Below are positions 16,226 to 40,854 of a stretch of 64,000 nt of DNA, piece by piece; position 1 is the stretch's first letter; every line of letters begins with the position of its first letter. Made by a program: the position numbers and the translations under genes. The DNA comes from an uncultured Bdellovibrio sp. GTDB lineage: Bacteria > Bdellovibrionota > Bdellovibrionia > Bdellovibrionales > Bdellovibrionaceae. Location of the stretch: positions 507,391 to 571,390 of the forward strand of contig CAWVRN010000001.1 of the NCBI GenBank assembly GCA_963932905.1, given 5' to 3'. The notes beneath the pieces are model-generated. The model had not been told where the DNA came from. It did not search any database and worked only from the letters and a program-made list of their open reading frames with translations.

Positions 16226-16302
16226 GGGGGTGTAGCTTAGTTGGTTAAAGCAATCGGCTCATAACCGATGGATCCGGGGTTCAAGTCCCTGCGCCCCTAC
16301 CA
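16226..16302 (+). tRNA. tRNA with CAT anticodon (tRNA-Ile2 or elongator tRNA-Met); ICE target
   Basis: Cloverleaf: acceptor GGGGGTG/CGCCCCT, anticodon arm ATCGG-CTCATAA-CCGAT, T loop TTCAAGT, encoded CCA; lacks initiator features; position after rpoD favours Ile2. Confidence 0.95.
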
Positions 16303-16323
16303 ATTTTATCGTTACCTGAACTT
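16273..16323. repeat. Left attachment junction (tRNA arm + CTACCA core + element arm)
   Basis: Core CTACCA 16297-16302; element arm TTACCTGAACTT 16312-16323 is the exact reverse complement of 61681-61692. Confidence 0.85.
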
Positions 16324-18101
16324 CTGATCGAGGAGTTCTGGTTTTCTCCAGCAGCACATTTTAAATTCTCACCCGCAGCTTCGGCTGCCGAATCAGGGAC
16401 CGTACCTGAGGATATCGCACGTCTTCTTTCATTCGCATTGGGAGCTGGGCGTTTTCGACGACCAAATGAAATAATGTTAGACTTATCATTTGAGTTTTCG
16501 CCTTGTGGCTCCACTTTAAGAGAAAAATCCCGATCTTCAGAGTTCGTCCAGAACGTAATTAAAAGCTCTGTTTGGGTCACAACGATCTCTTTTATAGTTC
16601 GTCGTAATAGTCGCTTACGCATGGCTGGCGTCGCCTTAGCCCAGCCCTGCATGCACCACCGGATTTGATTTTCTACGAATAGGGTTTGCTCTTTAAAGGC
16701 AAATGGGTCACTGGCTTTTGGATCAAGGGTTGATAAGTATTTCTCAAGGTCTTGCTTTTGTTTCGCAAGACGATTGAGTTCATCACTCGCCAGTTTCAGA
16801 GCATCTTCGCTTAATTGCATTCTAGATTGGTTTGTCCAAATCGAGGTAATGCGATTTTGAATGTCCTTAAGCTCTTTTTGTGTTCGATCAAATTCCGCAG
16901 CGCCGCCCTTTGTGTTTGCATCGGATTGTGATTTTAGAGTTTTTTCTAGATCATCAAAATATCCCTGAGTCATTAAAGCCGATCGCAATTCAGAAATCAC
17001 TTTTTCTTCCAGTTCGTCCGCATTCAAGCGTGGTCTTACGACTTTTAAATCTTTTGGACGACGCGAATAATGATAATATCTATGAATGGTTCCGCTACTT
17101 CCATGACCGGCTTGGCCGACAAGTGGTATTCCTGTAATTCCACAAGTCAGTATGCTCGTCAGAAGAAAAATGCGTTTTTCAGTTTTGGACATTCGTGTGC
17201 GTTCTCTCAGTGAAGCTTCTTCAAGTAAACTTTGAGCATCGAAAAATATCTTTTCATCTAAAATCGCAGGCCATGCGGCAGGAACAATTTGATATTTTTG
17301 CCAAGGCTTCAAGTGGGACGGGTCTTCATCCTTATAGACTTTATTTACTTCTCGTTTTCCGATGTACGCGATGTTTTCAATCAATGAACCTAAGCTTTGA
17401 TAATTCCAAATTGAATTTTGATTTTCTTTTTGTTTTGTGGAAGTTCGCTTAGGTCTAATTCCTAATTCGTTAAGCTTCGCTACCGCTTTCGCACGCGAGC
17501 CTTCATCCAAAAATATTTGAAATATTTTTTGAACGATTTGAACTTCGCTTTCATTTACCACAAGCAAACCTTTTTTGTCGGGATGTTTATCGTAACCCAT
17601 CGGAGCTGGGCCACCATTCACAAGACCGCGTAGTGCCCGTGAATGGCAATTCACTGCCACACGTTCACTTGTTTGCTCTCTTTCAAACTGACCTAAAATA
17701 ATAATGATATACACAAGCATGCGCCCAATCGGGGTGCTTGTATCAAACTGTTCTTTCATCGAAAGGTAACTTGCATGATGCTTTTCTAGTTCGTTAATAA
17801 GAGAGCAGAAATCCATCAAATTGCGTGAAAGTCGGGTTAAATCACTGACTAGAATTAAATTTATTTTCCCTTTGCGAACGTCAGACATTAGTTTTTGGTA
17901 AACAGGTCGATTCGTCGTTCCGGCGGATACGCCCTCTTCAACGTAAAACTCGACGATATTTCCCCAGTCAGCTTGTTGACGATTTTTATACTGCACAAAC
18001 TCATTGATTCTATATTTTTGCGAATCTAGCGATCCCTCAAAAACATTTACCTGATCTTCCGTTGATACTCTTATGTAGGCCCCAATCTTAAGCGACTTCA
18101 T
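16281..18101 (-). CDS. Large serine recombinase (integrase), integrated-state form; stop codon lies in the tRNA T loop
   Basis: YIRVST catalytic Ser, DLTRLSR, FEREQTSER, APMGY recombinase domain, zinc-ribbon-like segment, coiled coil. Confidence 0.95.
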   Translation of the reverse strand: MKSLKIGAYIRVSTEDQVNVFEGSLDSQKYRINEFVQYKNRQQADWGNIVEFYVEEGVSAGTTNRPVYQKLMSDVRKGKINLILVSDLTRLSRNLMDFCSLINELEKHHASYLSMKEQFDTSTPIGRMLVYIIIILGQFEREQTSERVAVNCHSRALRGLVNGGPAPMGYDKHPDKKGLLVVNESEVQIVQKIFQIFLDEGSRAKAVAKLNELGIRPKRTSTKQKENQNSIWNYQSLGSLIENIAYIGKREVNKVYKDEDPSHLKPWQKYQIVPAAWPAILDEKIFFDAQSLLEEASLRERTRMSKTEKRIFLLTSILTCGITGIPLVGQAGHGSSGTIHRYYHYSRRPKDLKVVRPRLNADELEEKVISELRSALMTQGYFDDLEKTLKSQSDANTKGGAAEFDRTQKELKDIQNRITSIWTNQSRMQLSEDALKLASDELNRLAKQKQDLEKYLSTLDPKASDPFAFKEQTLFVENQIRWCMQGWAKATPAMRKRLLRRTIKEIVVTQTELLITFWTNSEDRDFSLKVEPQGENSNDKSNIISFGRRKRPAPNANERRRAISSGTVPDSAAEAAGENLKCAAGENQNSSIRSSGNDKIGRGAGT

Positions 18102-18294
18102 CTAAAATCTCCTCTCGGATAACGGGACGACCTTTTCTCTGGCCAAGTAAAATAAGCTGACAGATAATTTCTTTCGCCTGGCTCATGCGAAGTTTTCCTT
18201 CCGGAGTTCTGTCATTTTCGAATCTTACTCTCACAATTAAATCCTTTGCCTTTGAAAAAGTGTCATCCGTTGTTGTTACAACTTTCAGACTCAC
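18088..18294 (-). CDS. Small protein overlapping int start, candidate directionality factor
   Basis: 68 aa, basic KGRP motif, coupled to int; function inferred from position only. Confidence 0.5.
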   Translation of the reverse strand: MSLKVVTTTDDTFSKAKDLIVRVRFENDRTPEGKLRMSQAKEIICQLILLGQRKGRPVIREEILDEVA

Positions 18295-18545
18295 TTAGAG
18301 CCTTTTCGTTTGGGTTTACTGAGCTCTGCACAATGATCTTTTAATTCTGTCAGCAGCTCTGATCTTTTTTTCTCGGGCCACTGATCTAAAATTCTCATGA
18401 TCGATTGAATCAATACGCTTGGCGTTCTAAAACCGCTTTCATAGTGATTCACTGGCAAGTAACTCGATAACCCAAATACTTCGGCAAGTTGCTTTTGCGT
18501 AAGCCCCATTTTTTCTCGTATTTCACGAAATTCTTTAGGCTTCAT
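18291..18545 (-). CDS. XRE-family HTH regulator
   Basis: IREKMGLTQKQLAEVFG...YESGFRTP. Confidence 0.85.
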   Translation of the reverse strand: MKPKEFREIREKMGLTQKQLAEVFGLSSYLPVNHYESGFRTPSVLIQSIMRILDQWPEKKRSELLTELKDHCAELSKPKRKGSK

Positions 18546-19951: not shown

Positions 19952-20241
19952 GGGGCCACCTTTTCTTGACCCGCGATAGGGACAAGAACAAAATTTCCGA
20001 GTTCAATTTGGCCATCAACTAAACCGGCCTCGCGCCATTCTAAAATATAATTGGAACTCAATTTATCTTTTAGGCTATCAGGAATTTTAAAGTCTGATCC
20101 AATATTCACCTGACGGATTCTAACTTGGCAGCTTGTTGTACCGACTAAAACGGTCCTTGCTCCTTCAGGGTTTCCGCACTTTGGTTTGCTGGCACATGAT
20201 GCCAATAGACTCAATGAGATACACAAAATAAGTTTACTCAT
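19948..20241 (-). CDS. Small T4SS lipoprotein (VirB7/TraV-like)
   Basis: Lipobox LASC; inside transfer operon. Confidence 0.55.
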   Translation of the reverse strand: MSKLILCISLSLLASCASKPKCGNPEGARTVLVGTTSCQVRIRQVNIGSDFKIPDSLKDKLSSNYILEWREAGLVDGQIELGNFVLVPIAGQEKVAP

Positions 20242-21893
20242 GAAGCCTTCCTATTTTGTTCAGTCAAAATATGGCTCATGACGTTTTCTGGAGTATTCTG
20301 CGCTATCACCAGCGCTTCTTTATCCGTCTCGATTTTTTTGGCTATGCTTACCGGTTCTGATTTTTTTATTTTCGGAATAACTGGTTTATCCAAATCAAAG
20401 GATTTTTTAAACTTTAGCCGAATTGGTAGACTTCCTTTTTCGTGCGGTAGAATTAGAACAGCTTCACCGATACCCATTGTTTGTTTAAAGATGTTAGGAT
20501 GAAACTTGAATTCTTCAACATCACGCACCGATCCATCACCAGTCTTTTCTGAACCAAAAAGACTTTGCTTTTGCCGTTCGGTAACTTTTGATCCTTCGCA
20601 GGTGCCAATGACTTCTGAAAAATAGCTAGCCGACTCCGGCTCATTGGTTCGCATGAATACCTTTAAGTTGGAATTGGTCAGTATGGTATTCATGACGCCA
20701 TCACCAAGGGCCTTCAAATCACCAAGGGCTTGATGGGCAAACACAATTCCGACATTGGCACTTCGCGATTTATTTAAAAGTGTTACAAACCCCGGCGTTA
20801 GGTACTCCGTAAAATCATCCAGATAAACTGAAAAGAATTTCTGGCCTTGGTATTTCCCAAGATGCCTTGAGCCCACAGCGCTTTGTAAACACTGAAGAAT
20901 CATTTTCCCGGTGGCTTTACCAAGTGTTGGAATCTTTAGGGCCGGAAGTTGGCAGTATACGATTTCGCCGTTTTCAAGCGCCTGCTCAAGATTAATATCC
21001 GAGTTTTCGCTATTAAAAATACCAGCTGACTCACCAACAGTAAAACTTTGCAGCTGCGCAACTAAGCCGCTTGTTCTTTGTTCGCGCTCTTCGCGTGTTA
21101 GCTTTAGGAAATCTTTAGACCAGGATTGCAATCTTTCGTTTTTCGACTCTGCTGCTAGCTCTGATAATACCTTTTCATTCTTAAGACACTCAATGACCCG
21201 GTACGGAGTCGCTTTGATTTTCGACGCTTCTAAAATCATTAGACAATGCAGAAAAGCATCGTACTGAATGCTTTTAAAGTATTCGTTTTCAAAATTTAAG
21301 GCGTTAAATACGCGCTCGGCGACTTCTAAGACCGATCCACCAGATAGGGGATTGAATGTGTGACTGATGCCTACATTACAAATTGATAAAATCCGAATAT
21401 CCTGTTCGCGGTCGTGTTTTTTTGCATAAGCGTAGAGTTTATCCAATAGATTTGAATCTGATTTACCATCTATCATCAAGAGTCCTCGGCCCTTTTTGAT
21501 ATCATCAATTGCCCAAGGCAGAATTACAGACTCTGTTTTGCCTGCGTTAGTTGTGCCGACAACTTGGGTATGCATTCGTCTAAAGGTTTGCTTTATAAAA
21601 ACAGATTTACCTTTATCTGAAATCCCAGCATAAACGGCGTCTTCATTTTCCTTTGGTTTAATGACATCATTTTCGATATCTCTTTCTTCAAAAAGCGAAA
21701 GCCATTTTTTCTTTAGCTTAATGAAAGCAATTAGAATTACTGCTGTAATCAATAAGGCAATAGCTATGCGCCACTTAAAATAAAACATTACGATCTGGAA
21801 TTTGTATTTTAGCCAAAGAACAAAAATCCCGAGCGTAACAACCAGTATTAAAAATCCTCTATCTGTCATGTCTGATCGATTATTTTCACTCAT
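20238..21893 (-). CDS. Type IV coupling protein (VirD4/TraD-like)
   Basis: Two N-terminal TMs, GTTNAGKT Walker A, IDGK, VYLDDF Walker B, KSRSA..HQ. Confidence 0.9.
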   Translation of the reverse strand: MSENNRSDMTDRGFLILVVTLGIFVLWLKYKFQIVMFYFKWRIAIALLITAVILIAFIKLKKKWLSLFEERDIENDVIKPKENEDAVYAGISDKGKSVFIKQTFRRMHTQVVGTTNAGKTESVILPWAIDDIKKGRGLLMIDGKSDSNLLDKLYAYAKKHDREQDIRILSICNVGISHTFNPLSGGSVLEVAERVFNALNFENEYFKSIQYDAFLHCLMILEASKIKATPYRVIECLKNEKVLSELAAESKNERLQSWSKDFLKLTREEREQRTSGLVAQLQSFTVGESAGIFNSENSDINLEQALENGEIVYCQLPALKIPTLGKATGKMILQCLQSAVGSRHLGKYQGQKFFSVYLDDFTEYLTPGFVTLLNKSRSANVGIVFAHQALGDLKALGDGVMNTILTNSNLKVFMRTNEPESASYFSEVIGTCEGSKVTERQKQSLFGSEKTGDGSVRDVEEFKFHPNIFKQTMGIGEAVLILPHEKGSLPIRLKFKKSFDLDKPVIPKIKKSEPVSIAKKIETDKEALVIAQNTPENVMSHILTEQNRKAS

Positions 21894-22839
21894 ATTCATC
21901 ACCTCCATCTTGTAGTTTTAAAGAACCACTTAAAACAGCGTCACATTCAGTGCCTGTTTTAAGTTCGATCCATTCACGTTCTGCTTTTAATTTTTCGCCG
22001 TAAGACTGCGCGCGGGCTTGAGCCGTTGCAGCGACCGCTCCAAGGAGTCCGTTTTCAATGCCGCCCTTGGATCGCCCAAGAACATCTGTTTCCATTGAGC
22101 CTTGAGCAAGACCGCCAACAAAGGTCGTAATAATTTGACCGGCCGTATTCTTGACTCCATCTGAAAAGACTCGACCGATGACACCTGGCTGACCGTCTTT
22201 ACTTAAAGCACTGCCCGCGATCTTTCGAATTTTTCCACTGGGCAAAGATATCTGACTAAACCTAATCTGCGCTCGATCTGTGCCTTTTTGAAAGCTGGCC
22301 TCACCATAAAAACGAGTTCCCGCTGATAAACGCAATCCCGACTCAGTGACTGAATCTAGAATTAGCTCGGCTAACACGGGTACTGATTCCTGCGAAACAA
22401 TAACGTTATCAATTAATCGAAGCGGGAGTCTTTCACCAGCGCGAAGTTGAGTTTTAGCATTCTGACCACTTCCAACGATCATCGATGTATTGTAGTTCAC
22501 TTCATTTCCACCACGCGGAACCGAAAACGAATTGACCGGAGGCCCCCATAAATTTTGAGCTGAACTTGCTTGTGTGGATCTATCTGACGGAGAACTTGAG
22601 TCTTCGTTGGTCTTTGCTTTTTCAATTTTTTCTGTAAACTCAACAGGAACCTCTGTCGGTAAGATAAAAACAACAGAAATAAATAAAACTAAGCCGATGA
22701 CTGCCATATTCCGAAAGGCCTTGAAATTAAGATCCTTTTTCTGACTGACTTCATTTTCTTTAATAAAAATTGATTTTATTTTTAAAAAGAAATTTTTTAT
22801 CCCGCTAAAGATATTTTTTATTTTAGATATTACTTCCAT
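21886..22839 (-). CDS. VirB10/TrbI-like core protein
   Basis: TM, low-complexity linker, GTRFYGEA, RAQIRF, DGQPGVIG. Confidence 0.75.
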   Translation of the reverse strand: MEVISKIKNIFSGIKNFFLKIKSIFIKENEVSQKKDLNFKAFRNMAVIGLVLFISVVFILPTEVPVEFTEKIEKAKTNEDSSSPSDRSTQASSAQNLWGPPVNSFSVPRGGNEVNYNTSMIVGSGQNAKTQLRAGERLPLRLIDNVIVSQESVPVLAELILDSVTESGLRLSAGTRFYGEASFQKGTDRAQIRFSQISLPSGKIRKIAGSALSKDGQPGVIGRVFSDGVKNTAGQIITTFVGGLAQGSMETDVLGRSKGGIENGLLGAVAATAQARAQSYGEKLKAEREWIELKTGTECDAVLSGSLKLQDGGDEYE

Positions 22840-23540
22840 AACGCAACCTCGGAAATAGATATTGAATTCGTTTTTGAACCTTTCAATTCGACGCGAATGG
22901 GTTTTCCTTTAACCAGATCAGATCGTGCAATGGATACACCGATTTTAAGAGGTTTATCCATTGTTAATTTTGTACTTGATAAAAAAAGGCTATTAACAGT
23001 TTTTGAATTGTCACCTTGAAATACCCATACGTCTTCTGGTTTAATTGTCACAAACTCGTTTGGTTTTAGTTTCAGCGACAAATCAAGTAGAACAAAGTCA
23101 TATTGAGAAATACCAATTCGTTCAATTACTAAAATCAAACCGTTTGCATCGCTTGATTTTCCCGATTTCTGCCATCGTACTTGTGAATTTGCACCATCTC
23201 TGAATGACGACAGAATATATACAATATAGTCAGCCGAATCCTGGGTAAGAGTTTGGAGCCGAATATTGTATCGCTTTTTATCGGCCACCAGATATAAATT
23301 GGTTTTGGCACTTCCTCTAAGGGGCTTTATCGTCACAGCCTTATCAAGATATTCAATCTTGAATGCCGATTGATCACCAATGATTGCCGACTGAATGGTT
23401 TCCGGAAGCTGAATGATGGTTGCAATCCCAAGAGCCGTTCTCACTGTTAATATTTGATCGTCACTGTAAACAACTTTTCTTATGTGCGCCGACACACAAA
23501 GTGAAAAAACAGAAACTATGATAAATATAGAATACCTCAT
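22830..23540 (-). CDS. VirB9/TrbG-like core protein
   Basis: Signal peptide, TIIQLPETI..IIGD, IKP...TNL. Confidence 0.75.
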   Translation of the reverse strand: MRYSIFIIVSVFSLCVSAHIRKVVYSDDQILTVRTALGIATIIQLPETIQSAIIGDQSAFKIEYLDKAVTIKPLRGSAKTNLYLVADKKRYNIRLQTLTQDSADYIVYILSSFRDGANSQVRWQKSGKSSDANGLILVIERIGISQYDFVLLDLSLKLKPNEFVTIKPEDVWVFQGDNSKTVNSLFLSSTKLTMDKPLKIGVSIARSDLVKGKPIRVELKGSKTNSISISEVALWK

Positions 23541-24133
23541 CGCGCAGCCTCTTCAGTTTCTTTTGATATATAAACGCCCCAAGGATTCACGATGGTGCGA
23601 TCATCCGTGCCGAAGTGAAAAATGAGTTTCATTTCGGTTGCGGCTTTCAGATTATCAAACTCTGTAATACGATCAGCAAGAACCGTGACCTTTTTTTCTT
23701 TTAGATCAACAGTAATATTCTTTGGATAAACTCGCTGTTTCACTTTCTTTTCGCGAACAAATTTTTGCACTTCGAGCATTGATTTTTCAAAGGCTTGAAC
23801 CAATGACGGAACGACAAAAAACTTTGCTTTACCGAGGGATTCATTAATTGTTTTTTCATCCCAAGAGTATCGATAACTGACATATTCCTTAACCGCAGAT
23901 TCGATTTGAAGATCTGTGATTTTTGTTTCAACTTTTGCAACGGCGCCTGTGCTATCTAAAGCGATAACAAGCGGTCCTTGCTTCACAAGATAGAGCACAA
24001 GCAAAACTTGCAGGAACGTAATGGCAAGAAGGCCCCCGCAAAGATACTTAATATTAAAGTTTTCTGTGGCAAACTGCTGCATGGCTTTTGGGTAGAAACT
24101 CGTTTGTAGCGTGATTTTTTTATTTGTATTCAT
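23537..24133 (-). CDS. VirB8/TraK-like protein
   Basis: Single TM, C-terminal R...NPWGVYI. Confidence 0.7.
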   Translation of the reverse strand: MNTNKKITLQTSFYPKAMQQFATENFNIKYLCGGLLAITFLQVLLVLYLVKQGPLVIALDSTGAVAKVETKITDLQIESAVKEYVSYRYSWDEKTINESLGKAKFFVVPSLVQAFEKSMLEVQKFVREKKVKQRVYPKNITVDLKEKKVTVLADRITEFDNLKAATEMKLIFHFGTDDRTIVNPWGVYISKETEEAAR

Positions 24134-24147
24134 AATGACACCTCCTT

Positions 24148-25023
24148 CTAAGACCCTTTGGGTCTAAATGTTGATTGAATGTTTTGAAATTTCTGACTTG
24201 CATAAGATCTTGTATTTGAAATCATTTCGCGTGATACCTGATGAACAGTGGCAATTCGGGTCGGCAATGCCACGGCAGCTAGTGCCGCAGTAGTTCCAAT
24301 TGTTTGCGCGGTAGCCTGAACACCTTCGCCGATGAGGGATCGCACAATCATTGGAGTAAAAAGCATTGCAATAGCAATGACAAAGTTCATCACGATCAAA
24401 GTTAAATATGATCCATCAGTTTGATAGATGTTTCCAAATGAGAGTGATGTGAGCATTGCCGACATAATCGCCCATATCACCTTCCATAGCGCCACTTCTA
24501 TTAAGCCCTTATAAAGATTTGCTGTAATCCCTGCTGTTTTTGGAAAGACATAGCAGAGAATCATGAGCGGCGCGCAGACCGACAAAAGCACCCAATAAAA
24601 ATAATAAAGCGCAACTGTGATGTAGCGTGCGAGCAGCAAAAGCAAAAAGCTTCCAAAGCTGAGTATGGCCATAAAAAGATCATCAAATTTCAGAAGCAAC
24701 ACGTTTTTTGCGACCGCATAGCTTCTGGATTTTTCTTCTGCCATTCGCATGAAGGTTTCAATTCCAGACATATTGTCAATTTTAAGAGCGAGCCCGTCAC
24801 AAATATCTAGAATCAAATTTGAAACTTCTGGAAATGAAGCCAGCAGCAAAGCCGCAACGAACGATCTTTTTATAATGTCTGGATAATTTGAATCACCAGA
24901 TTTTAAATACCCAAACACTACTGAAAATAAAACAGCCACCGGCAGCATGATATAAAATAAATTACTCAGGCCGTGATGAAGGTCTTTAACTAGTGATCCT
25001 AAAACTTCTAGATTTGGAGTCAT
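24148..25023 (-). CDS. VirB6-like polytopic membrane protein
   Basis: Multiple TMs, position in T4SS operon. Confidence 0.7.
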   Translation of the reverse strand: MTPNLEVLGSLVKDLHHGLSNLFYIMLPVAVLFSVVFGYLKSGDSNYPDIIKRSFVAALLLASFPEVSNLILDICDGLALKIDNMSGIETFMRMAEEKSRSYAVAKNVLLLKFDDLFMAILSFGSFLLLLLARYITVALYYFYWVLLSVCAPLMILCYVFPKTAGITANLYKGLIEVALWKVIWAIMSAMLTSLSFGNIYQTDGSYLTLIVMNFVIAIAMLFTPMIVRSLIGEGVQATAQTIGTTAALAAVALPTRIATVHQVSREMISNTRSYASQKFQNIQSTFRPKGS

Positions 25024-25721
25024 TGGCCACCTCCGATTCTTGGCAGCCTTGTGTCCTTCGGAAGGCTGCCAAAGCCTCGGGATAGCCCCTGATAGTTTTC
25101 TTGGAAGTTTTGGGTCGCAAGTTTCTCTTTTCTAGTATCATAGGCCATATTTTGAGCCATGATTTTTAGCATTTGAGATTGCGTCCGCAGTAGCTGAGTC
25201 GAAACACCGATCAAAACCGCGAGTGCCTGATTCTGAAGTTTCCCGGCCCCTTGGGGACTAACCACTTGCGCATGAAACAAAATTTTATCTCGTTCGACAT
25301 CAACTTGGTCGGCGTAGTCGTACAAATTTCTGTTCATTGAAATGACTTCAGCAACGCTTTGATCTTGCGATCGCATAAGGTCTTCATCCATGCCGCTTGG
25401 AACAACTCCATACACCGATTGAAGAGCCCTTAGAACGGCATCAGCATTATTCAAATTACCATAGACCCCAGGGTTAAAATTGGGATTAATAATTCGAATC
25501 AAGTCAATGCCGCTCCTGACTCCCGCGTTTATGTCGCGCATGAGATCTAAAGTGTCCTTTCCGTTTTCAAGGACGTTTTTTAAAGTAATGACGGTCTGAA
25601 TGGCCTGAGCTAAGATTTGAGTCAGCACCACAACATCACCTCCGAAGAGGTCCGCTTTCGCGGATCTTGGGCCAATAAAAATTATCGCTGCAATTATCAT
25701 CGCAGAAAATTTATTTTTCAT
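25020..25721 (-). CDS. VirB5/TrbJ-like protein
   Basis: Signal peptide, helical Gln-rich, between virB4 and virB6. Confidence 0.6.
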   Translation of the reverse strand: MKNKFSAMIIAAIIFIGPRSAKADLFGGDVVVLTQILAQAIQTVITLKNVLENGKDTLDLMRDINAGVRSGIDLIRIINPNFNPGVYGNLNNADAVLRALQSVYGVVPSGMDEDLMRSQDQSVAEVISMNRNLYDYADQVDVERDKILFHAQVVSPQGAGKLQNQALAVLIGVSTQLLRTQSQMLKIMAQNMAYDTRKEKLATQNFQENYQGLSRGFGSLPKDTRLPRIGGGQ

Positions 25722-28189
25722 GACGCGACCGATTTTGAGAAATTTTGGTAGGCCACTCCAAATGGCGCAAGTTCGCTAGCTTTTATTAAGGCATCTTCTA
25801 ACGATAATCCATCCGACTTTAGCGATTCTAGAAACTGATTGTCGCGGGCATCTGATGTAGAAACCCAATATTCCAATGGTGATGGCTCGATACGAATAAC
25901 TTGCCTTGATTCACCCTCCATCAAAAAGCCTTCACTAAATTGACCTTTGCGCTGCTCAAGACTTTGTATCAATCGCAGTTCCTGGGAATTTAATTTTAAA
26001 GCGTCGCGCAGAACAGCGGTGTCGCCCTTTTGAAGCATGACAAGTTTTGTAGCTGTATTATTTAAAATCGCTGGTCCCATTCCGCTTGCAATAATCTCTT
26101 CCACGCCTTGGGTAATAAAAGTGATTCCGCTGCCAGTTTTCCTAAAGGTACGGGCTGCATATTCCATAAAGGAACTGGCCGCAGGACTCTTCAATAGGTC
26201 CCATGCCTCATCGAGCAAGACTCGTTTTGGAATGGTCCGCTCGGCTTCCACTTGTTCCAAAATAAAATTAGTCAGAATCAAAATCATCACAGATTGTAAA
26301 TCTGGATATTGCGATAGCCCCTTTAAATCAAAGGCAACGATTGGTCTATCCGCTTCAATTTTGCCAGCACCATCCAGCAACTTTCCATAAGGCGTTTTGC
26401 CGGTCCAAGGAAAAAGCATTTTACCAATGCGCTTCAAAGATTCGTCGTTATGGCTAAGACAATACTTAGACAAATCGGAAAGTTTTGGTGACCGCGCTTG
26501 ATTTTCACCACGAACTGAATCAAATACTGCTGTAAGTGCTGCTTCTAACTGGACACGGTCAAATCTGGATAATTTCTCGCCGCTATCAACGACCATTTGC
26601 TCAATCACACTAACAAGACTTTTAATGCGCTCGCCAGTTGGCGGAGCTGATGGGTCGCGAAGTTCAAATGGGTTAATGATATATTCGCCGGTGAGATTAA
26701 TTTCAAAATACTGACCGCCCAGAACTCGAGTCATTTTTTTGTAAGAGCCGCCGATGTCGATAATATACACCCTAGTGCCACGGGCTATTTGCTGAAGCAT
26801 TAAAAAATTGTTGGCAAAACTTTTTCCAGATCCGCTTGAACCTGTAACTAAAGCGTTAAAATTACTAAGCCTGGCCGAATAGGAATTCATTGAATATAAA
26901 GTCCCTAGTCTTGTTTTTAAGAGGCATACTGGTTTTTCATCACCAGTGGCCGCGCCAAAGAGTGGGAAAAAATCGACCAGATTGTTTGTTTTCAACTTTT
27001 TAGATCTTACCAAATTCACCGGTGCCAGCGGCAAATCTGATTTAAATACTTTCCATGCGCCCACGGTCTCTTGAATTCCTTCAGATCCACTGAGCGTTTT
27101 AAATTTAGCTAAGACTTCTTTTGTGTGAAGATTAAGCTTTCGAGCACCGGCTGCTGAATTTTCTTCGCGAATAACAATCATAAGTTGGGCTTGAAAAATT
27201 CTTTGCCCAGTTTCAATAATCTCACGAATCAAATCAGTCGTTTGCGATAGGCGCGATTCACTTTCTAAATCTGAAACCCTATTTCCACTGTTTGCTGATA
27301 GGGAGTGTGCCATTCGCCGCTTTTGGTCAAGCCCCTTCATTTCCTTTGATTGGTCGGGGACGTTGAATGACAAAAATAGTTCATACTTAAAAGGTAAAGC
27401 CAAAAAGCCACTCATCATTCCCGCAAATGTCATTTCCGGAAGTGTCTTAAGCGTTAGAACTCTAGTTTTTTGACTATCAAGAGTAAAGTCTTCTTGATCC
27501 AGCACCAAATCCCCAAAAACAAGTTGTTCTCGCGGTGAATTTCCCTCTATTGCAATACTATTGCAATTTACTTTTGGCGCACCAATTGAGGAAGACCGTT
27601 TAGGGTTCAGATAGCGGTACAATAAATTAATAAAATCATCTTTAGTCAATTCAGACGCTAAAAAACCAAGTGATGAAAGAGATCCTTTTGCGCCCTCTAG
27701 GGACTGCGACAAGGTTTGCAGCTGATCTTCGTATCCTTTTTCAAATTCAACTGAGAACTTTTTTGTTTGCCCTAATGAAAATGAATTTGGTTTTTGCCTC
27801 TGGCTGGTCTTTATAAAAAAGAATAATCTTGGCCTAAATAATTCTCCATCTTCAGTTTGTTTTAATAAAACATTCGATCTCTTTTGATCGAGCGCGCAAA
27901 GAAACTTATTCTCTGTCGTTAATAGATCGACATGCCTTTTAATGACGCCGCCAACATCAGAATCATTGACCACCATAAACTGAGCTGTAACACCTTCTGG
28001 TAAGGAGTTAGCAAATGAACGCAGTCCGAATGCAAGTTGATTGATACGAGCTTCATCGAAGCACTCAATATCTAACGGCAATAACTCTAATCCTGACGAA
28101 AGCGATCCATCGCAAAGAATCGCATGTGATACAGGTTTTGATTCAATTTCCCAAAACGGCAGTTGTTCGCATAATGATGCCTGGTTCAT
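25718..28189 (-). CDS. virB4: VirB4/TraC conjugation ATPase
   Basis: GSSGSGKS, IIDIGGSY, INPF, LLDEAW, ARTFRK, ITQ. Confidence 0.93.
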   Translation of the reverse strand: MNQASLCEQLPFWEIESKPVSHAILCDGSLSSGLELLPLDIECFDEARINQLAFGLRSFANSLPEGVTAQFMVVNDSDVGGVIKRHVDLLTTENKFLCALDQKRSNVLLKQTEDGELFRPRLFFFIKTSQRQKPNSFSLGQTKKFSVEFEKGYEDQLQTLSQSLEGAKGSLSSLGFLASELTKDDFINLLYRYLNPKRSSSIGAPKVNCNSIAIEGNSPREQLVFGDLVLDQEDFTLDSQKTRVLTLKTLPEMTFAGMMSGFLALPFKYELFLSFNVPDQSKEMKGLDQKRRMAHSLSANSGNRVSDLESESRLSQTTDLIREIIETGQRIFQAQLMIVIREENSAAGARKLNLHTKEVLAKFKTLSGSEGIQETVGAWKVFKSDLPLAPVNLVRSKKLKTNNLVDFFPLFGAATGDEKPVCLLKTRLGTLYSMNSYSARLSNFNALVTGSSGSGKSFANNFLMLQQIARGTRVYIIDIGGSYKKMTRVLGGQYFEINLTGEYIINPFELRDPSAPPTGERIKSLVSVIEQMVVDSGEKLSRFDRVQLEAALTAVFDSVRGENQARSPKLSDLSKYCLSHNDESLKRIGKMLFPWTGKTPYGKLLDGAGKIEADRPIVAFDLKGLSQYPDLQSVMILILTNFILEQVEAERTIPKRVLLDEAWDLLKSPAASSFMEYAARTFRKTGSGITFITQGVEEIIASGMGPAILNNTATKLVMLQKGDTAVLRDALKLNSQELRLIQSLEQRKGQFSEGFLMEGESRQVIRIEPSPLEYWVSTSDARDNQFLESLKSDGLSLEDALIKASELAPFGVAYQNFSKSVAS

Positions 28190-28509
28190 AATTCACCCCC
28201 TTTGTTAAATTTTCGATATTGAAAATCTTGTGAGTTGGCCGAGAAAACAGTTGGCGAGATAAGATGCTCAAAATAATGTTGCAGAAACTGATCAGGTTTT
28301 CCTTTCTTAAAGAAAAACAAAATCAAAAAGAGTCCAAGACTTGTTCCAAAAACCATTGGAATCTTCATCGAGGTCGATCCAAAAATTAAATTTTGAACTG
28401 ACAAATTTAAAAGCAAGATCAATACGTCTGACAGCTCCAGACCCAAAATTTTATTTTTTGTTTCTAGTGTTCTTGGGACCGATGAGGTCAATAGATTAAA
28501 ATCACTCAT
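28186..28509 (-). CDS. VirB3/TraL-like membrane protein
   Basis: Two TMs, KGKP motif, directly upstream of virB4. Confidence 0.65.
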   Translation of the reverse strand: MSDFNLLTSSVPRTLETKNKILGLELSDVLILLLNLSVQNLIFGSTSMKIPMVFGTSLGLFLILFFFKKGKPDQFLQHYFEHLISPTVFSANSQDFQYRKFNKGGEL

Positions 28510-28793
28510 TAGCGCACCGTCTGCGATATAAAATCAACAATCGCCTGTGCGCCAAAACCGATGATACTACCAAGAATCGCATACCACATATGCGTCTTGG
28601 CTTTTTCATTGCCGCTCATCAAACTAAAAGCCGCCCATGCAATTCCAATAATAGAAAGTGTCGGTAAAATAACTCGGGTCAATTTCGTCTGAATTCCCAT
28701 TAATGAAGACTCAACACTTGCAAGTCCAAGCTCTGGAACGATCAATAATGCTGCCGTCAGCATAAAAATAAATAAATATGATTTTCTGTTCAT
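28509..28793 (-). CDS. VirB2/TrbC-like pilin
   Basis: AGGAGG RBS, signal peptide plus two hydrophobic helices, IIGFGAQAIV. Confidence 0.8.
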   Translation of the reverse strand: MNRKSYLFIFMLTAALLIVPELGLASVESSLMGIQTKLTRVILPTLSIIGIAWAAFSLMSGNEKAKTHMWYAILGSIIGFGAQAIVDFISQTVR

Positions 28794-28818
28794 AAATGTA
28801 CCTCCTGTGTTAGTTGTT

Positions 28819-29232
28819 TTAAGATGCAAGGCTGTCCTCCAGTCCCTCTGATTTTTCCGGAAACAAGCAAAGGAAAATATTTTCTGGGATTAGCTGAATT
28901 CGTAGCGCAATAAAACTTCCAGCTAGTTTTCCTTCACCGATTCGATACCAGCTTGATTTCATTTCGCCTGTCGGTAATTGGTATTCTTCAAGACTGAGGA
29001 CAACGTACTTGGTATCATCATTGTCATCAGGCAGTATGAAATATTGAGTATTTGGGTGTGTGAATAGTTTAAGGCGAAATTTTTTAGATCCTGCTTTTAA
29101 ATACGCTACGCCAACGCTTTCACCTTCAATGACTTCACCTGATGAAGTCATTTCCCCAGTATAAACGCCATATTTTTCTGATTTACGAATAGGGATCACA
29201 TTACTAAATGAAAAATCGCTAGATTTATTCAT
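28819..29232 (-). CDS. Hypothetical beta-rich protein (DUF736-like ssDNA-binding candidate)
   Basis: Tandem VGVAY / WYRIGEG pattern, acidic tail. Confidence 0.4.
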   Translation of the reverse strand: MNKSSDFSFSNVIPIRKSEKYGVYTGEMTSSGEVIEGESVGVAYLKAGSKKFRLKLFTHPNTQYFILPDDNDDTKYVVLSLEEYQLPTGEMKSSWYRIGEGKLAGSFIALRIQLIPENIFLCLFPEKSEGLEDSLAS

Positions 29233-30004: not shown

Positions 30005-31561
30005 TTAGCGAACAACTATAGGGATTTCAGCGATCTGGCTTTTTGGAATTAAATAGACTCCGTATTGAATGCAGGACGCACGAACGTCATCATTGTCGAA
30101 GTGGCCAGTCACAAGGCACCTGATCGCGGCCTCAGGCATATCCTGAAGCCATTTAAGACCGGTGTCTCCGTCTCCCAAGTCGTAATCAAAAAGTAAAGTG
30201 CAATTGTCGGGTTCACTATCGATTTCGTGCTTGATAGGTAATAGCTCGTTGCCATGGCTCATGAACTTAGTTTGCTTTAGTAACTGGGTATCATCGAACT
30301 TCAATTGCCATAAAGCGCGCCCGGACTCTTGGTCATCAAGTACATATATTTTTGAGTCAGAATTAAATTTAAGTCGTGGCAAATACCATTTCGCTCGGTC
30401 ATTGACTGGTAGTCGTATTGTCAGAGTCGATCCTAAACCGAGGCTTGAATTAACTTCAATTGAACCACCCCACGCTGATAAGAATTCTTTCGCATGCCAA
30501 AGGCCGACACCAGTCCCATTTTTTTTGCCAAACGAAAAATCTTTATCGAAAATATTTGGTTGAATTTCTTTTGCAATCCCGCATCCAGTATCTGCAACAA
30601 TAATTTCAACTTCAGCTCCCAAATCTCTGCACCTGATATTGATTCGGCCAGCATTGTTCATTGCCTCTATTGAATTTGTAACTAAGTTTCCTAAAATGGA
30701 TCGCATCTCAACAGGAATATGAGTAGCCAAAGTCGATAAAATCATATCATCGATTTCAAAATGAAAATCAATTCCCTTTGGTACATATAAATCGAGCTCC
30801 CGTCGGGCCTGAACGAGAGTTCCATAAATGTCAGTTTTAGTTTGATCTGAAAGTTCCTCAGTTTTCGTATCGTCAAGTTTGGCAACTAAATCTTTTATTT
30901 GATTTATTGTAACCTGAAGCAAATCTTTATCTTTTGCCACACTAGACGGCAAGCGACCAGGAATTCGCATCAAAGCGGCCAGCGGAGTTCGTAAGTTATG
31001 TCGAACCTGGTGCGCTAGTTCGCTTTTAGCGACCTTTTTTTGTAGTTCGAGATCCCGATGAAACTGCTCGACCAATCGTTTTCTCATAAATCTGGTTTGG
31101 GGAATAGAAACCAGATTTAAAATTAACCAAATGAAAAATGCATAAGAAACAAATCTAAATCGTGAATACTCATAGATAATTGTATCGGCTGGTCCATCAC
31201 TTAGTTCGTTTGAAATTGTAGTTGAATATTCATCTGATGAAAACGCTTTCCAAAAAGTCTTTTTGCCTTCAAGTTCTGCGCTTGGTGGCAAAATGAATGA
31301 GCGATCAGGTACCGTAGATTTGTACCTGATACTTATAAATTTCGAAAGTCTTGCTTCTTGCAGAATCAAAGAGGTTTCTCGAAAATCACCAACTTTAACG
31401 AAACGAGACAACAGCTTAGTATTATCCTCAGCGACTGATTGAATATACAACGTATTAGAAATCAATGCCAACCCGAAAAAAATCAATAGGACCAAAGCAG
31501 ACACAACAATTTGCCGATTTTCAAAATCTTTAATTCTAGTCTCGGGAGTCATCGCAGTCAT
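30005..31561 (-). CDS. Hybrid sensor histidine kinase
   Basis: Two TMs, HNLRTPL H-box, NLVTNS, DTGCGI, GTGVGL, C-terminal receiver (LDD, FDYD, VTG, PK). Confidence 0.92.
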   Translation of the reverse strand: MTAMTPETRIKDFENRQIVVSALVLLIFFGLALISNTLYIQSVAEDNTKLLSRFVKVGDFRETSLILQEARLSKFISIRYKSTVPDRSFILPPSAELEGKKTFWKAFSSDEYSTTISNELSDGPADTIIYEYSRFRFVSYAFFIWLILNLVSIPQTRFMRKRLVEQFHRDLELQKKVAKSELAHQVRHNLRTPLAALMRIPGRLPSSVAKDKDLLQVTINQIKDLVAKLDDTKTEELSDQTKTDIYGTLVQARRELDLYVPKGIDFHFEIDDMILSTLATHIPVEMRSILGNLVTNSIEAMNNAGRINIRCRDLGAEVEIIVADTGCGIAKEIQPNIFDKDFSFGKKNGTGVGLWHAKEFLSAWGGSIEVNSSLGLGSTLTIRLPVNDRAKWYLPRLKFNSDSKIYVLDDQESGRALWQLKFDDTQLLKQTKFMSHGNELLPIKHEIDSEPDNCTLLFDYDLGDGDTGLKWLQDMPEAAIRCLVTGHFDNDDVRASCIQYGVYLIPKSQIAEIPIVVR

Positions 31562-32367
31562 TGATCACCGCTTATTTTTGAGACTTTGTACTTTGATATT
31601 TTTAGCGGAGCAGATTTCAAAATTGGGATATCAAAATAGTTTAATTCTACTGATACAAGATCCGGTAAAAAAGATTTGTGCAATTCATCTACTGAGATAG
31701 TGCCGAGCAAAGGGCTGATTTTTGATATGAATTCTCTAGAAATCTGCCATGGCACGCTTGAAACGGATTCATTAGGTCCATTTTTATTTTTTAACCAACA
31801 AAAACTCGGAATCGACTCTAAAAATGATCGTCGCTGCGAAGTTTCCATTGATTCTGACAGTGCAAAGCCAAAAGATATTCTCTCGGCATCTGAAATCTGA
31901 CAAACCAAACCAAATAGGCTATTTGGCGTTGCCATTTGAAAAAAACGGACTTCACAGTCTTTATTCATATCTAAAAAGCTATTGGGCGAAAGAATTTTAG
32001 ATTTTACTTCACGAAGTGGTATCTCATTCTCTAGATGCTCATTTAAATAAAATCTTTCTAAGGCTTCAAATTTTGCGTGAGATTCAGGGCAATGACTTCC
32101 GCCAGAAACCGCTAGTCCGATGGAATCAACACTTTTTGAGACACAAATGATTCTCTCAATACATTCAGCCACTGATTTTTCAAAGGCAATTTCACGATTA
32201 TCGTCAACGCCGCAACCCTCGATTTCAATTCCTTGCCAGGTAATCTTTGTGGAAAAATCAAATAATCCGGGTACAAGTTCGCCTGAACCTTTAAATTCTG
32301 TAAAGGTAGGTGCAAGCACGGATCGATTTAGATAAAGCCATGTGGCTAACGGAGTTTTATGCGCCAT
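31558..32367 (-). CDS. Compact YcaO-like protein
   Basis: GCG..A..KS.AECIER, SIGLAV..AKFEALER, third FG..SFLE motif; 269 aa, no C-terminal PxP. Confidence 0.65.
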   Translation of the reverse strand: MAHKTPLATWLYLNRSVLAPTFTEFKGSGELVPGLFDFSTKITWQGIEIEGCGVDDNREIAFEKSVAECIERIICVSKSVDSIGLAVSGGSHCPESHAKFEALERFYLNEHLENEIPLREVKSKILSPNSFLDMNKDCEVRFFQMATPNSLFGLVCQISDAERISFGFALSESMETSQRRSFLESIPSFCWLKNKNGPNESVSSVPWQISREFISKISPLLGTISVDELHKSFLPDLVSVELNYFDIPILKSAPLKISKYKVSKISGDQ

Positions 32368-33884
32368 AATTGATTATTTGCATAGAGTTCAGATAATTCG
32401 ATCTTCCATGGCTTTCTTACTAACGCTGCATAAGGCAGAGCCATCAATGGTACAACGGTTGGCCTAGTAAGAGCATCAAAATGCAGCTCCTTAAGTTTTT
32501 TGATTCGTTTTTCTTTGTCATCGGTAGCCATATAATGGGCTAGCCATTGCGCGCGATCATGTTTATTCAGACCCAGCACACCAGAATTGAGTGAATATGA
32601 AATAAGTCCTATGTCTTCCATAAAGCCAGTATCAGTGAATCCAATAAAAGCGTGCGGAGTGTCTTCAGGTTGAAGATCATTTTTGAAATCAGGAATATAC
32701 CCAATCAAACTCGCATCCACTTGTGGTAAAAGTTCTTTGATAGGAGTTGCCCATTCCTCGAGAGTGCCTCGGCGGATAATTCCAAGTTGAATTTTTTGAT
32801 TCGGTTCTGTTGTTTCGTTGTCTAATTCCATTTTAAAGCGATTTTGTTGCTCGGCATTTAGCCCACCCTCACTTAGGTTTGGAAAAAATTCAGACCGTTG
32901 CTCAACACCAGCAACTCCATTATATATTTTATTGAATGCGATTTGCATCTTTTTACCGATATAGCGTCGTTCTGCTGAACTAAATTCTTTTTCGCCTTTT
33001 TGGGTAAAAACTAAGACAAGCGTTCTAATTTTCATCGTCACTAGAAGGTCAGTATCTGAATTTTTTTGTGCAAAATTAATTACGTCCTCTGGCTTGGATG
33101 CATCTATTGTCGTAAGGTGATCTACAATCCCATTTGTAAAAGCAGCTAAACTATTAGTTCCAGATTTAAGATCCGTTGGAATAAAAAAGATTTTATTTGC
33201 AACATCGTCTGTTGCAAAATAATGATTTGGATTTTTTAGTAATTGAATTTTTCCATTTCCGTCGTCGCTATCAACTGAATAGGGGCCACTAGTTTCGCTA
33301 TAATTTATGATTTTAAGCGATATAGGATCAGCACTTGATTTTGGAATGATCGCAAAATCAATCGCCCCGAGCATTGGTAACAAAAATGATTTTTTACCTT
33401 TCGCATTTAGGAAAACTGAATTGCCCTCTTGTCTGATCCCAGGACATTCTTCTTCGGTAGATTTAATCACAATTCCTGGGCAGACTATATCTCGAAAATT
33501 TCCATGTGTGTTACCCGAAAGGACTAAAAGCCGTTTAAGAGAAAAAACAACATCAGTAGCGGTAATACTTTTTCCTGAAATAGTTTTAAGACTGTCTCTA
33601 ATAGTGAGTTTAAGTTCGTCACCAATCCATTCGACCTTTTCTGCTACGCCCGGCTCGACAGAGCCACTTGCTGAGATTTCAACAAGTGGCGAGTAAACAT
33701 TTTCCAAAAATATATATTCATAATCAAAATTTATATTAGTTGGCTCGTAGGCTGTTGACTTGAGTCGCACTGGAAATGCGACTCTTAGAGTTTTATTTTG
33801 TTGTTGTACTTTCATAGAAACAGCTCCTCCGAGCATCAGTAAAATAGATAGGACAATAATAGTTTTTATTTTATTTATTGTCAT
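32346..33884 (-). CDS. Orphan family-5 (OppA-like) solute-binding protein
   Basis: YSPLV, PGVAEK, ITATDVVFSL, TSGPY, L.KNPNHY; N-terminal anchor. Confidence 0.85.
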   Translation of the reverse strand: MTINKIKTIIVLSILLMLGGAVSMKVQQQNKTLRVAFPVRLKSTAYEPTNINFDYEYIFLENVYSPLVEISASGSVEPGVAEKVEWIGDELKLTIRDSLKTISGKSITATDVVFSLKRLLVLSGNTHGNFRDIVCPGIVIKSTEEECPGIRQEGNSVFLNAKGKKSFLLPMLGAIDFAIIPKSSADPISLKIINYSETSGPYSVDSDDGNGKIQLLKNPNHYFATDDVANKIFFIPTDLKSGTNSLAAFTNGIVDHLTTIDASKPEDVINFAQKNSDTDLLVTMKIRTLVLVFTQKGEKEFSSAERRYIGKKMQIAFNKIYNGVAGVEQRSEFFPNLSEGGLNAEQQNRFKMELDNETTEPNQKIQLGIIRRGTLEEWATPIKELLPQVDASLIGYIPDFKNDLQPEDTPHAFIGFTDTGFMEDIGLISYSLNSGVLGLNKHDRAQWLAHYMATDDKEKRIKKLKELHFDALTRPTVVPLMALPYAALVRKPWKIELSELYANNQLWRIKLR

Positions 33885-33891
33885 AAAAATT

Positions 33892-34197
33892 TTACTTAGT
33901 TTTAGCTTCAGACGCAGACGCAGCCCCAGGACCACCGCCAAAGCAAACTGTAGTTGGATGCACACCACCCCTTTGAATTTGACCCTCAGCTTCAAGTAAA
34001 CTCAAAATATCTTGATCAAAACTGACACACTGGTTTTCTGAAACACTCAGTGTTTTCGTTTCACCAAGTAGCTTAATCGCCCATGCGATTTGAGTAAGCT
34101 GAAGTGGAGTGAGTTTTTTTGCCTGGGCTTCATCAGCAAAGCTAGATGAGCCGATTCCCAACATTCCTGCAATCATGATTAATAACGTTTTTTTCAT
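33892..34197 (-). CDS. Small secreted protein, candidate signalling/RiPP precursor
   Basis: Sec signal (SFA|D), two Cys, C-terminal GGVHPTTVCFGGGPGAAS; ATGA overlap with activator gene. Confidence 0.65.
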   Translation of the reverse strand: MKKTLLIMIAGMLGIGSSSFADEAQAKKLTPLQLTQIAWAIKLLGETKTLSVSENQCVSFDQDILSLLEAEGQIQRGGVHPTTVCFGGGPGAASASEAKTK

Positions 34198-35585: not shown

Positions 35586-35597
35586 TCCGGCGCCCCC

Positions 35598-35696
35598 TCC
35601 GTAAATTCACATAAAACTACTATTACAAATACGGTGCCCAAACATTTTACAGATAATTAAGCATTAGACTTAATGTGATTGATCTGAATTTACGGA
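35598..35696 (-). promoter_or_regulatory. sigma54-like promoter inside a 12-bp inverted repeat overlapping the RBS
   Basis: TGGGCACCGTATTTGTA (minus, 35624-35640); TCCGTAAATTCA 35598-35609 / TGAATTTACGGA 35685-35696. Confidence 0.45.
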
Positions 35697-35781
35697 AGGC
35701 CAAAAATTGGGTAAAAAAATTGAAGAAAGTTCATGGTCAATATGCACCTGGTGTTGTTGAAACAAATTTTCCAATTACAGT

Positions 35782-36060
35782 TTATCCTAACAATATCTCT
35801 AAATCATAAACGGCGTAGTAGGTTGTACCGTTATCGAAAGAAACAATTCTTTCATTCTCTTCTTCAGTTGTAGCATGCTCAGACATCGCTATTTGCCAAG
35901 AAATAGGATTATTTGTTTTAAGTAATTCAACCGTATCAAATTTGCACCAAGCAACTTTGGTAGTTTCGGAATAACATTCCCGAACCATATCGGAAAAAGA
36001 TTCTTCTAAATCGACGAATACTAATTCAGTTTCAAGAATATGTTTGATTATCCATTCTAT
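35782..36060 (-). pseudogene. 5'-truncated paralog of 60289-60735
   Basis: EWIIKHILETEL..DLEESF..PISW..SFDNGTTYY aligns with DWIIEEILQLEL..DLSEAF..PISW..SFDNGSTYY; in-frame TGA just upstream, Cys-rich N-terminus missing. Confidence 0.75.
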
Positions 36061-36221
36061 TCAAAATTTTTCATTGCTGTGATTTTCAGAGACGTCTTTA
36101 TTATTTTAATATGATGATGAGAATTATGTATTTGGTTCAGAAAATGAACCATTTTTCTAAATATTCAATTCATAAACTGATCTAACATTTTTCGATAGTG
36201 TTGATTTAAAGAGATTATCAA

Positions 36222-38250: not shown

Positions 38251-38252
38251 AA

Positions 38253-39766: not shown

Positions 39767-39779
39767 ATTGAATGTCCAC

Positions 39780-40829: not shown

Positions 40830-40854
40830 GTTTTTTCCTTTCAAAAAATATTCG

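Follow-up and report, generated by a model that had tools for sequence, protein, structure and literature searches.

A 45.4-kb element that appears to be an integrative conjugative element (ICE) occupies the 3′ end of a tRNA-Met(CAT) gene in a 64,000-nucleotide stretch of DNA from an uncultured Bdellovibrio sp. (the whole stretch is called the window here, and the element spans window positions 16303-61711). The explanation that we consider probable is that the element was placed in tRNA-Met by its own large serine recombinase (LSR), that this enzyme reads a box in the T loop of the tRNA gene, and that the attachment site of the element, attP, splits the reading frame of the integrase. The evidence comes from the anatomy and geometry of the attachment (att) sites, a pattern seen across the family of related LSRs and the split frame, all of which are observed directly in the DNA. 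Tyrosine integrases are the enzymes classically found at tRNA genes, and here a large family of serine integrases occupies such genes. In the proposed mechanism, the LSR would insert the element into the 3′ end of tRNA-Met by recombining an attP of about 52 bp with the tRNA gene at C71-T72. The last nucleotides of the gene, (T)ACCA, would come from the element and, being resupplied in this way, would leave the tRNA whole. GTTCA at positions 24-20 of each attP half-site corresponds to the same letters at positions 19-15 in the tRNA (G53-R57), and the zinc-ribbon domain of the enzyme would read the T-loop box as the left-arm motif of the host site, attB. The choice of tRNA would fall to the core and its immediate surroundings (nt 71-76), the right arm of attB, which has no motif, would be tolerated as found, and a C-terminal module with a helix-turn-helix (HTH) and a recombinase-domain-like part would be left at the far end of the element.

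The tRNA-Met(CAT) gene is the only tRNA called by ARAGORN in the window, and an rpoD-like open reading frame (ORF; 14332-16161) lies directly upstream of it. Behind the tRNA, the P′ arm TTACCTGAACTT (16312-16323) is an exact inverted copy of the P arm AAGTTCAGGTAA (61681-61692), and the window holds no other exact copy of this 12-mer; with up to one mismatch there are four matches against 0.34 expected, a count reached in none of 100 shuffles. The inverted arms bracket an element of 45,409 bp with CTACCA at either end, and 13 nt separate the P arm from the CTACCA of attR. When attR contributes its left half and attL its right half, the rebuilt attP measures 12 + 13 + 6 + 9 + 12 = 52 bp, and each arm in it stands 13 nt from the CT, which places the dyad axis between C71 and T72 of the tRNA. 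The CT at the centre is non-palindromic, as the central dinucleotide of a serine integrase site is required to be. A preliminary description of this DNA had claimed a 52-bp attP with perfect 12-bp arms centred on CT, a GTTC whose start precedes the C of the CT by 23 nt in attP and by 18 nt in the tRNA, and a 7/8 match between the arm GTTCAGGT and the tRNA 8-mer GTTCAAGT (16279-16286, tRNA G53-T60); all of this was reproduced when recomputed from the sequence. Its statement that the element resupplies ACCA and leaves the tRNA intact agrees with the copy of CTACCA at both ends. The same right end was found by a blind search of the whole contig that ranked copies of the tRNA end by dyad symmetry: the top site, 45,409 bp away, had 13 of 17 symmetric positions, and the runner-up had only 10 of 17.

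A second insertion of the same type of element bounds the crossover and provides a natural test of specificity. At this locus (L049), an element that matches window 16303-22101 at 98.1% identity over 5.8 kb and has an identical P′ arm adjoins a tRNA(CAT) that is 54/77 identical to the window tRNA-Met and has an unrelated flank. Position 70 is G on the P side, C in the window tRNA and A in the second tRNA, and the A at +1 after CCA has been carried by the element into two different tRNA genes; this mismatch and the travelling A place the exchange within nt 71-76. On a metagenome contig from an independent study, the switch from the second tRNA to this element occurs exactly at 16297. The preliminary description had put the crossover inside CTACCA, and two independent insertions now bound it to those six nucleotides; we infer that the crossover dinucleotide is C71-T72 (16297-16298). 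The two targets have GGTTCAAGTCC and CTACCA in common, and between these only two of the eight nucleotides at positions 63-70 agree, so recognition evidently does not depend on the sequence of the inner arm, and what both sites share is the T-loop box and the core.

The source genome (58 contigs) contains nine further LSR genes. Seven of them abut the 3′ end of a tRNA in convergent orientation (Gln, a second Met, Arg-TCT, Arg-TCG, Val, His and Asp), one lies on a 2-kb contig and one has no tRNA nearby. When an alignment of seven paralogues was searched against one genome per species, 80 loci were recovered, titled Bdellovibrionota-type, Oligoflexia or unclassified metagenome-assembled genomes, with a few under other labels. 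A convergent tRNA directly follows the LSR at 49 of these 80 loci, and the tRNA-adjacent loci cover 19 tRNA species. At two loci (L106 and L113), the LSR stands at the 3′ end of a transfer-messenger RNA (tmRNA) gene (..GGGGGTTCGATTCCCCCCACCTCCACCA), with the same P′ geometry as in the family. A palindrome search for an intact attP downstream of the 31 LSR loci lacking a called tRNA gave no clear site, and a position-weight scan of the same set later gave three; several of these loci are contig ends, or tRNA-like or tmRNA ends that ARAGORN did not call.

The P′ arms of the family share a word at a fixed place. GAAC ends exactly at +19 after CCA (+16..+19) in 26 of 57 P′ arms, and at no other single position in more than four. 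Among 26 control tRNAs of the source genome it is found at +16..+19 in two, one beside a decayed LSR and the other 124 nt from a contig end, where the flank is of P′ type and the remaining contig has no LSR. Altogether, an LSR half-site follows the CCA in 10 of the 34 detected tRNA genes (eight with an LSR gene, one with the decayed LSR and one at the contig end; G000 contigs C1, C5, C9, C11, C12, C22, C43, C44 and C45), and the remaining 24 control tRNAs have no such half-site. P arms are known at 10 sites, and GTTC(R) stands at positions 24-20 in five of them (the window element, a second attP in the window, the Val element, a congener attR and L086), with four of the five letters present in two more (L083 and L126). 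Where both arms are known, in four elements of the source genome and the intact second attP, the dyad centre lies 5 nt before the tRNA end. A further conserved word (GGTC/GGTTC-like) occupies positions 29-32 of the P′ arms, 8 bp farther out than the first and confined to the P′ side; it could reflect protein-coding conservation or a further binding site.

In the passages of Rutherford et al. (2013; PMC3783163) that model the Listeria innocua LI integrase of the A118 family, the zinc-ribbon-domain (ZD) motif occupies positions 16-24 in attP and 11-19 in attB. The shared letters at 24-20 and 19-15 fall at the outer end of this motif in each site, and we propose that the T-loop box GTTCAAGTC is the ZD motif of attB. 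Each of 45 non-redundant arms (12 of the 57 were dropped as near-duplicates) was compared, as a left half-site, with its cognate tRNA at 19 offsets. The mean was 4.73 matches out of 10 at +5 and 1.76-3.58 at the 18 other offsets, and the same scan was flat for the 26 control flanks (2.19-2.85). The 5-bp difference between attP and attB that the preliminary description had given for LSRs thus reappears here as a single peak, equal to the published LI shift; on the tRNA (left) arm, the outer motif is 5 bp nearer the centre in attB than in attP, and on the right arm no such motif was seen in the six flanks inspected. In the arm logo (n = 45), G24 occurs 28 times, T23 35, T22 38, C21 and T21 25 and 16, and G20 37. 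All four arms with A at position 20 face A57, and those with G face 15 G and seven A. Because the same letters lie 5 bp further out on attP, as in the serine-integrase rule, reading of the T-loop box by the zinc-ribbon domain is the most likely arrangement. The earlier suggestion that the LSR reads the conserved T loop is therefore supported by comparative evidence from the family pattern, the +5 peak and the L049 insertion.

We assign the 606-aa protein encoded next to the tRNA to the large serine recombinases on the basis of its Pfam domains: Resolvase (PF00239; E 2.5e-31, residues 8-159) and Recombinase (PF07508; E 2.5e-15, residues 185-295). Residues R11, S13 and T14 are invariant in the alignment of seven paralogues. 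The gene converges on the tRNA, and its last codons cross attL into the tRNA antisense and stop within the T loop; every tRNA-adjacent relative likewise reads across into its tRNA. Many homologues of the LSR have a zinc-ribbon domain.

Several observations weigh against the reading of the T-loop box by the LSR. In this protein, the zinc ribbon (PF13408) scores only 19.6 bits, under the 25.3 cut-off, and two Cys retained by six paralogues are Thr and Val. Exact GAAC at +16..+19 is absent from 31 of 57 P′ arms, with GCAA(N) in its place in whole subfamilies (Gln, Arg-TCT and some Met), and three of the 10 known P arms (Gln, Asp and one congener site) deviate to TTGC or TTTCG types. Across the family, the arm and the T loop share only 5-6 bp (GTTCR, often GGTTCG), the rest of the 7/8 match being specific to the window element. 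At arm position 20, 37 of 45 arms have G irrespective of the tRNA base, and since arms with G face both bases and the loci are related, the covariation of position 20 with nt 57 is weak. A mirrored box (YGAAC, +10..+14) was not seen in the right half of attB in any of the six flanks inspected by eye; in the window this stretch is ATATT, as the preliminary description had indicated in stating that the right arm lacks a symmetric motif. A palindromic dinucleotide (CG/GC) stands at nt 71-72 in 11 of 57 loci (Pro, Gly, Arg-ACG and Arg-TCG), a difficulty for a serine integrase if exchange takes place at the same position there. The arms also lie within coding DNA, so some of their conservation could be protein-level. 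Finally, we infer from sequence comparison which domain contacts which bases, where binding and cleavage take place down to the exact dinucleotide, what sets directionality and what role the split of the integrase plays.

Some of these points would be expected if GTTCG-type arms were simply the preferred outer motif of this clade and the likeness to the T loop were fortuitous. The tRNA would then be chosen through its acceptor-end core and inner contacts of the recombinase domain, with the outer domain binding the tRNA arm loosely or in another register. This would fit the mere 5-6 bp in common, the G at position 20 regardless of the tRNA, the subfamilies that target tRNAs with TTGC-type arms, and a right arm of attB that works with no motif. 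It would not readily account for one sharp peak among 19 offsets at precisely the published ZD shift, nor for a near-identical element in two tRNAs that differ at six of the eight inner positions 63-70 and share the T-loop box. We regard a fortuitous likeness as improbable, though it is the strongest of the competing explanations.

The second main feature of the element is that attP lies inside the integrase gene. From the P arm, a frame on the LSR strand is open into an ORF at 61198-61620, and scripted reconstruction brought this detached module into frame with the LSR once attP was rebuilt. In the integrated element, the detached frame has a stop four codons upstream of the core, and its first start is a TTG at 61620. 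We rebuilt attP for the four elements of the source genome with both ends known, and the open frame became longer in all four: from 606 to 770 aa for Met (the window element), 591 to 768 aa for Gln, 636 to 764 aa for Asp and 622 to 676 aa for Val. As these four LSRs are only 25-43% identical, an open frame by chance is unlikely. Unsplit LSR proteins of 718-788 aa exist elsewhere, including P0003 (769 aa) and P0004 (736 aa, 73% identical to the window LSR over 557 residues), and P0005 is a 581-aa fragment. Unsplit open frames of 784, 788 and 750 codons occur at L083, L086 and L126, each enclosing an attP of matching geometry. Of the 120 best homologues, two have at least 700 aa and most have 560-610 aa; stand-alone copies of the detached module number 23 on record. 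With attP inside the integrase frame, integration cuts a protein of about 770 aa to 606 aa and removes a module of about 165 aa. Within residues ~320-360 the window LSR has CGITG where the paralogues have CGECG, with Val at the later Cys, and its closest unsplit relative, P0004, has the same losses.

The removed module appears to combine an HTH with a recombinase-domain-like part. Pfam matched it to HTH_58 (6e-6) and to the first half of the Recombinase domain (5e-5). An AlphaFold model (mean predicted local distance difference test score 73.9) has a three-helix HTH, a disordered linker, and a beta-hairpin with helices. Foldseek gave no match to this model at E<=0.001; its best rows were serine-integrase-DNA complexes (E 7e-3 to 5e-2), in weak agreement with Pfam. 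A complex prediction for LSR residues 300-530 with the C-terminal module returned a score of 0.01 and a mark of 0.32, giving no verdict either way.

It is possible, and we offer this only tentatively as a view we find somewhat unlikely, that integration acts as a built-in switch in which only the excised circle encodes the full integrase of about 770 aa. The extra HTH and second recombinase-domain-like module might serve integration, for example by holding a flanking site or the right arm of attB that lacks a motif, and the integrated element would make the 606-aa core enzyme and at most a detached module, so that directionality would be set partly by the state of the integrase gene itself. 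The same view includes retargeting and module exchange: if the outer domain reads a box common to all tRNA genes, little more than a change of core would be needed to move to another tRNA, and neighbours in tandem arrays might swap C-terminal modules. One database protein, P0126, matches the tail of the second LSR type of the window in its N-terminal part and the detached module of the window element in the rest, the product expected from a hybrid junction within a tandem array.

Since the arms are part of a reading frame, their motifs might be a by-product of coding, with a conserved peptide keeping GTTC/GAAC in the LSR frame. The P′ arm is coding, a Gly/Ser-Ser dipeptide recurs in the tails, and the P′-only conservation at positions 29-32 may be protein-level. 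Yet the two arms, which are oppositely oriented and encode different peptides, have an identical DNA word in mirror-image places; the tail around them is of low complexity and little conserved; and in L086, whose arms are a mosaic between types, each arm still has GTTC(R) at positions 24-20. We give this explanation little credence. Least credible of all is the view that a 3′ segment of the tRNA was once captured, as in the attP of tyrosine integrases, and that the arms are its decayed remains, devoid of any function. Islands of tyrosine integrases do carry long tRNA copies, and tandem accretion is evident at this tRNA, but no more than 6-7 bp of the core are identical to the tRNA, and the box, shifted by 5 bp, recurs in inverted orientation on the other side, unlike a relic. 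Comparison of 51 element ORFs with Pfam or PHROGs (six with PHROGs alone) matched no tyrosine integrase.

Comparison with known systems was made against the relevant parts of the published accounts. The LI/A118 system resembles this one in its short attP, with inverted half-sites around a 2-bp centre and an outer motif that ends at 24 in attP and 19 in attB (PMC3783163). It differs in that the attB motif here would be the universal T-loop box and is found on one arm only, itself a point against our reading, and in that attP here lies inside the integrase frame and the zinc ribbon lacks two Cys ligands. In the Roseburia phage Shimadzu, an att site lies within the LSR gene, and another copy was found in a tRNA (Cornuault et al. 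2019, bioRxiv 10.1101/575076); its free and integrated forms likewise have different C-termini. Shimadzu belongs to a gut Firmicute, and no more than the last ~20-22 aa differ between the two forms, whereas the Bdellovibrionota-type ICE would lose a folded DNA-binding module of ~165 aa; the passages on Shimadzu contain no T-loop or offset analysis. In the Dehalococcoides tmRNA (ssrA) islands, a 20-bp repeat is embedded in the gene of the CcrB-like serine recombinase DsiB (McMurdie et al. 2011, PMC3146451). The parallels are a recombinase that adjoins attL, a target at the 3′ end of a tRNA-like gene, tandem accretion downstream and a repeat within the recombinase gene, and L106 and L113 also place the present family at a tmRNA 3′ end. 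The differences are a 6-7 bp core at nt 71-76, a single LSR and a type IV secretion system. We rejected assignment to the DsiB/DsiA type, which is marked by a 20-bp repeat of the tmRNA end and by a small second serine recombinase next to the large one: the core is 6 bp, and beside the LSR stand an HTH_3/MqsA-like ORF and an ORF with no match.

The streptococcal ICEs that target rumA also have a single serine integrase, whose gene contains one repeat, and at integration the target and the integrase exchange their 3′ ends (Ambroset et al. 2016, PMC4701971). Their target is a protein gene that is altered, whereas here a tRNA is restored and a whole domain module is detached. The Islander tyrosine islands (Hudson et al. 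2015, PMC4383910) share the tRNA 3′ end, the restored gene and tandem accretion, and differ in enzyme family and in the long tRNA copy that attP lacks here; with no tyrosine recombinase matched and only 6 bp of tRNA identity, we rejected an island of this type. That 2015 database paper states that no serine integrases were known to choose tRNA genes, and a search listing showed no use of the word tRNA in the main text of Durrant et al. (2022). We found no description of a T-loop/5-bp rule or of the loss of a folded module in a literature search whose coverage excluded subscription journals and supplements.

The logic suggested by these comparisons is that one domain reads the universal T-loop box at host-site spacing and a few acceptor-end bases choose the tRNA. 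If true, it would account for the spread of one family across tmRNA and at least 19 tRNA species, and nature would thereby supply a series of serine integrases whose targets are related and predictable; such enzymes are used as genome-insertion tools. The cut through the integrase gene may offer a route to directionality control with no separate factor.

A first correction concerns the kind of element, which is not a phage: type IV secretion genes are present and phage structural genes were not found, so the element is best described as an ICE. A prophage was rejected since no capsid, portal, terminase or tail families were found among 50 ORFs compared with PHROGs (E<=1e-5). The secretion genes were recognized by Pfam (Table 1). 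No relaxase family was found among the 45 element ORFs put to Pfam, six further ORFs being compared with PHROGs alone, and several ORFs between 19136 and 29495 have no domain match. The cargo includes a histidine kinase, a sigma-54 response regulator, a methyltransferase, a radical-S-adenosylmethionine (SAM) DUF3641 protein and a MIP channel; ABC transporter parts, a ribonucleotide-reductase-like protein, DsrE and a rhodanese/metallo-beta-lactamase; and an MFS transporter, an ArsR-rhodanese and a cysteine desulfurase.

Table 1. Features of the tRNA-Met locus and its element (window coordinates; att, attachment; T4SS, type IV secretion system).
Feature	Position	Strand	Basis
tRNA-Met(CAT), target gene (attB left half and core)	16226..16302	+	ARAGORN, sequence
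T-loop box GTTCAAGTC, tRNA G53-C61, attB left half-site positions 19-11; proposed ZD motif	16279..16287	+	sequence, offset scan, PMC3783163 rule
LSR, 606 aa when integrated	16281..18101	-	ORF, Pfam
attL core CTACCA, tRNA nt 71-76	16297..16302	+	dyad symmetry; bounds from second insertion site
P′ half-site: 9-nt spacer and arm TTACCTGAACTT; GAAC at +16..+19 after CCA	16303..16323	+	sequence
Small HTH_3/MqsA-like protein adjoining LSR, candidate regulator	18291..18545	-	Pfam/PHROGs scans
T4SS / conjugation block	20238..28829	-	Pfam
Coupling protein (TraG/VirD4-like)	20238-21908	-	Pfam
TrbI/VirB10	21886-22839	-	Pfam
CagX/VirB9	22830-23540	-	Pfam
VirB8	23537-24133	-	Pfam
VirB4/TraC	25718-28189	-	Pfam
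TrbC/VirB2 pilin	28509-28829	-	Pfam
Cargo region	30005..60735	.	Pfam/PHROGs scans
Severed LSR C-terminal module, 168-aa open frame from P arm, HTH_58 and partial Recombinase	61198..61704	-	frame reconstruction, Pfam
P arm AAGTTCAGGTAA; GTTCA at half-site positions 24-20	61681..61692	+	sequence
attR core CTACCA	61706..61711	+	sequence, dyad search
B′ flank, 1.8-kb right-end remnant of older element of another type	61712..63540	.	comparison, Pfam
Broken BrnT (remnant)	61824-61964		
BrnA (remnant)	62027-62275		
SLT transglycosylase (remnant)	62297-62965		
Lipoprotein-like ORF (remnant)	62901-63452		
Second LSR gene, 3′ part, runs off contig end	63465..64000	-	sequence comparison
Intact second attP, GGTTCGATTA ... 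CCTACCA ... TAAGCGAACC, same geometry	63548..63600	+	sequence

The DNA to the right of attR is a remnant of an older element and not naive chromosome. It is found at 91% identity in a congener (L002 1034-3296), where it stands behind the attR of another element and ends in a P arm, core and terminator. We considered whether the flank might be an in-register P′ arm of the older element, in which case its TGAAA would be one base off. The empty site that the preliminary description had proposed to look for (..CTACCATTTTTCTAG) would, as a second correction, join the tRNA to the older remnant and not to naive chromosome. Neither the tRNA joined to TTTTTCTAG nor the circle junction was present in the contigs of four of 21 listed public runs, all available as assembled contigs; contigs can show presence only and so carry no information on excision. 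No exact match to the rebuilt attP, hence no free form, was found in the viral contigs scanned. In the window, the remnant runs up to the intact second attP, which lies inside the 3′ end of the second LSR gene, 1.8 kb from the attR of the first element. This second LSR is 96% identical over 155 nt to an LSR beside tRNA-Met in another congener; the presence of an unrecombined attP in the chromosome could reflect a tandem copy or an assembly join.

The same tRNA-Met is followed by LSR half-sites of other types in five congeners and by the window element's type in a sixth, one further congener looks empty, with a terminator straight after CCA, and metagenome contigs have yet more half-site types behind this gene. 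These comparisons point to tRNA-Met as a hotspot with tandem accretion. Within the cargo, window 38253-41814 and 55611-60173 hold a phosphorylase, a MIP channel, a SAM methyltransferase, a radical-SAM DUF3641 protein, DsrE, a rhodanese/metallo-beta-lactamase, an ArsR-rhodanese and a cysteine desulfurase, a gene content that suggests arsenic or sulfur chemistry.

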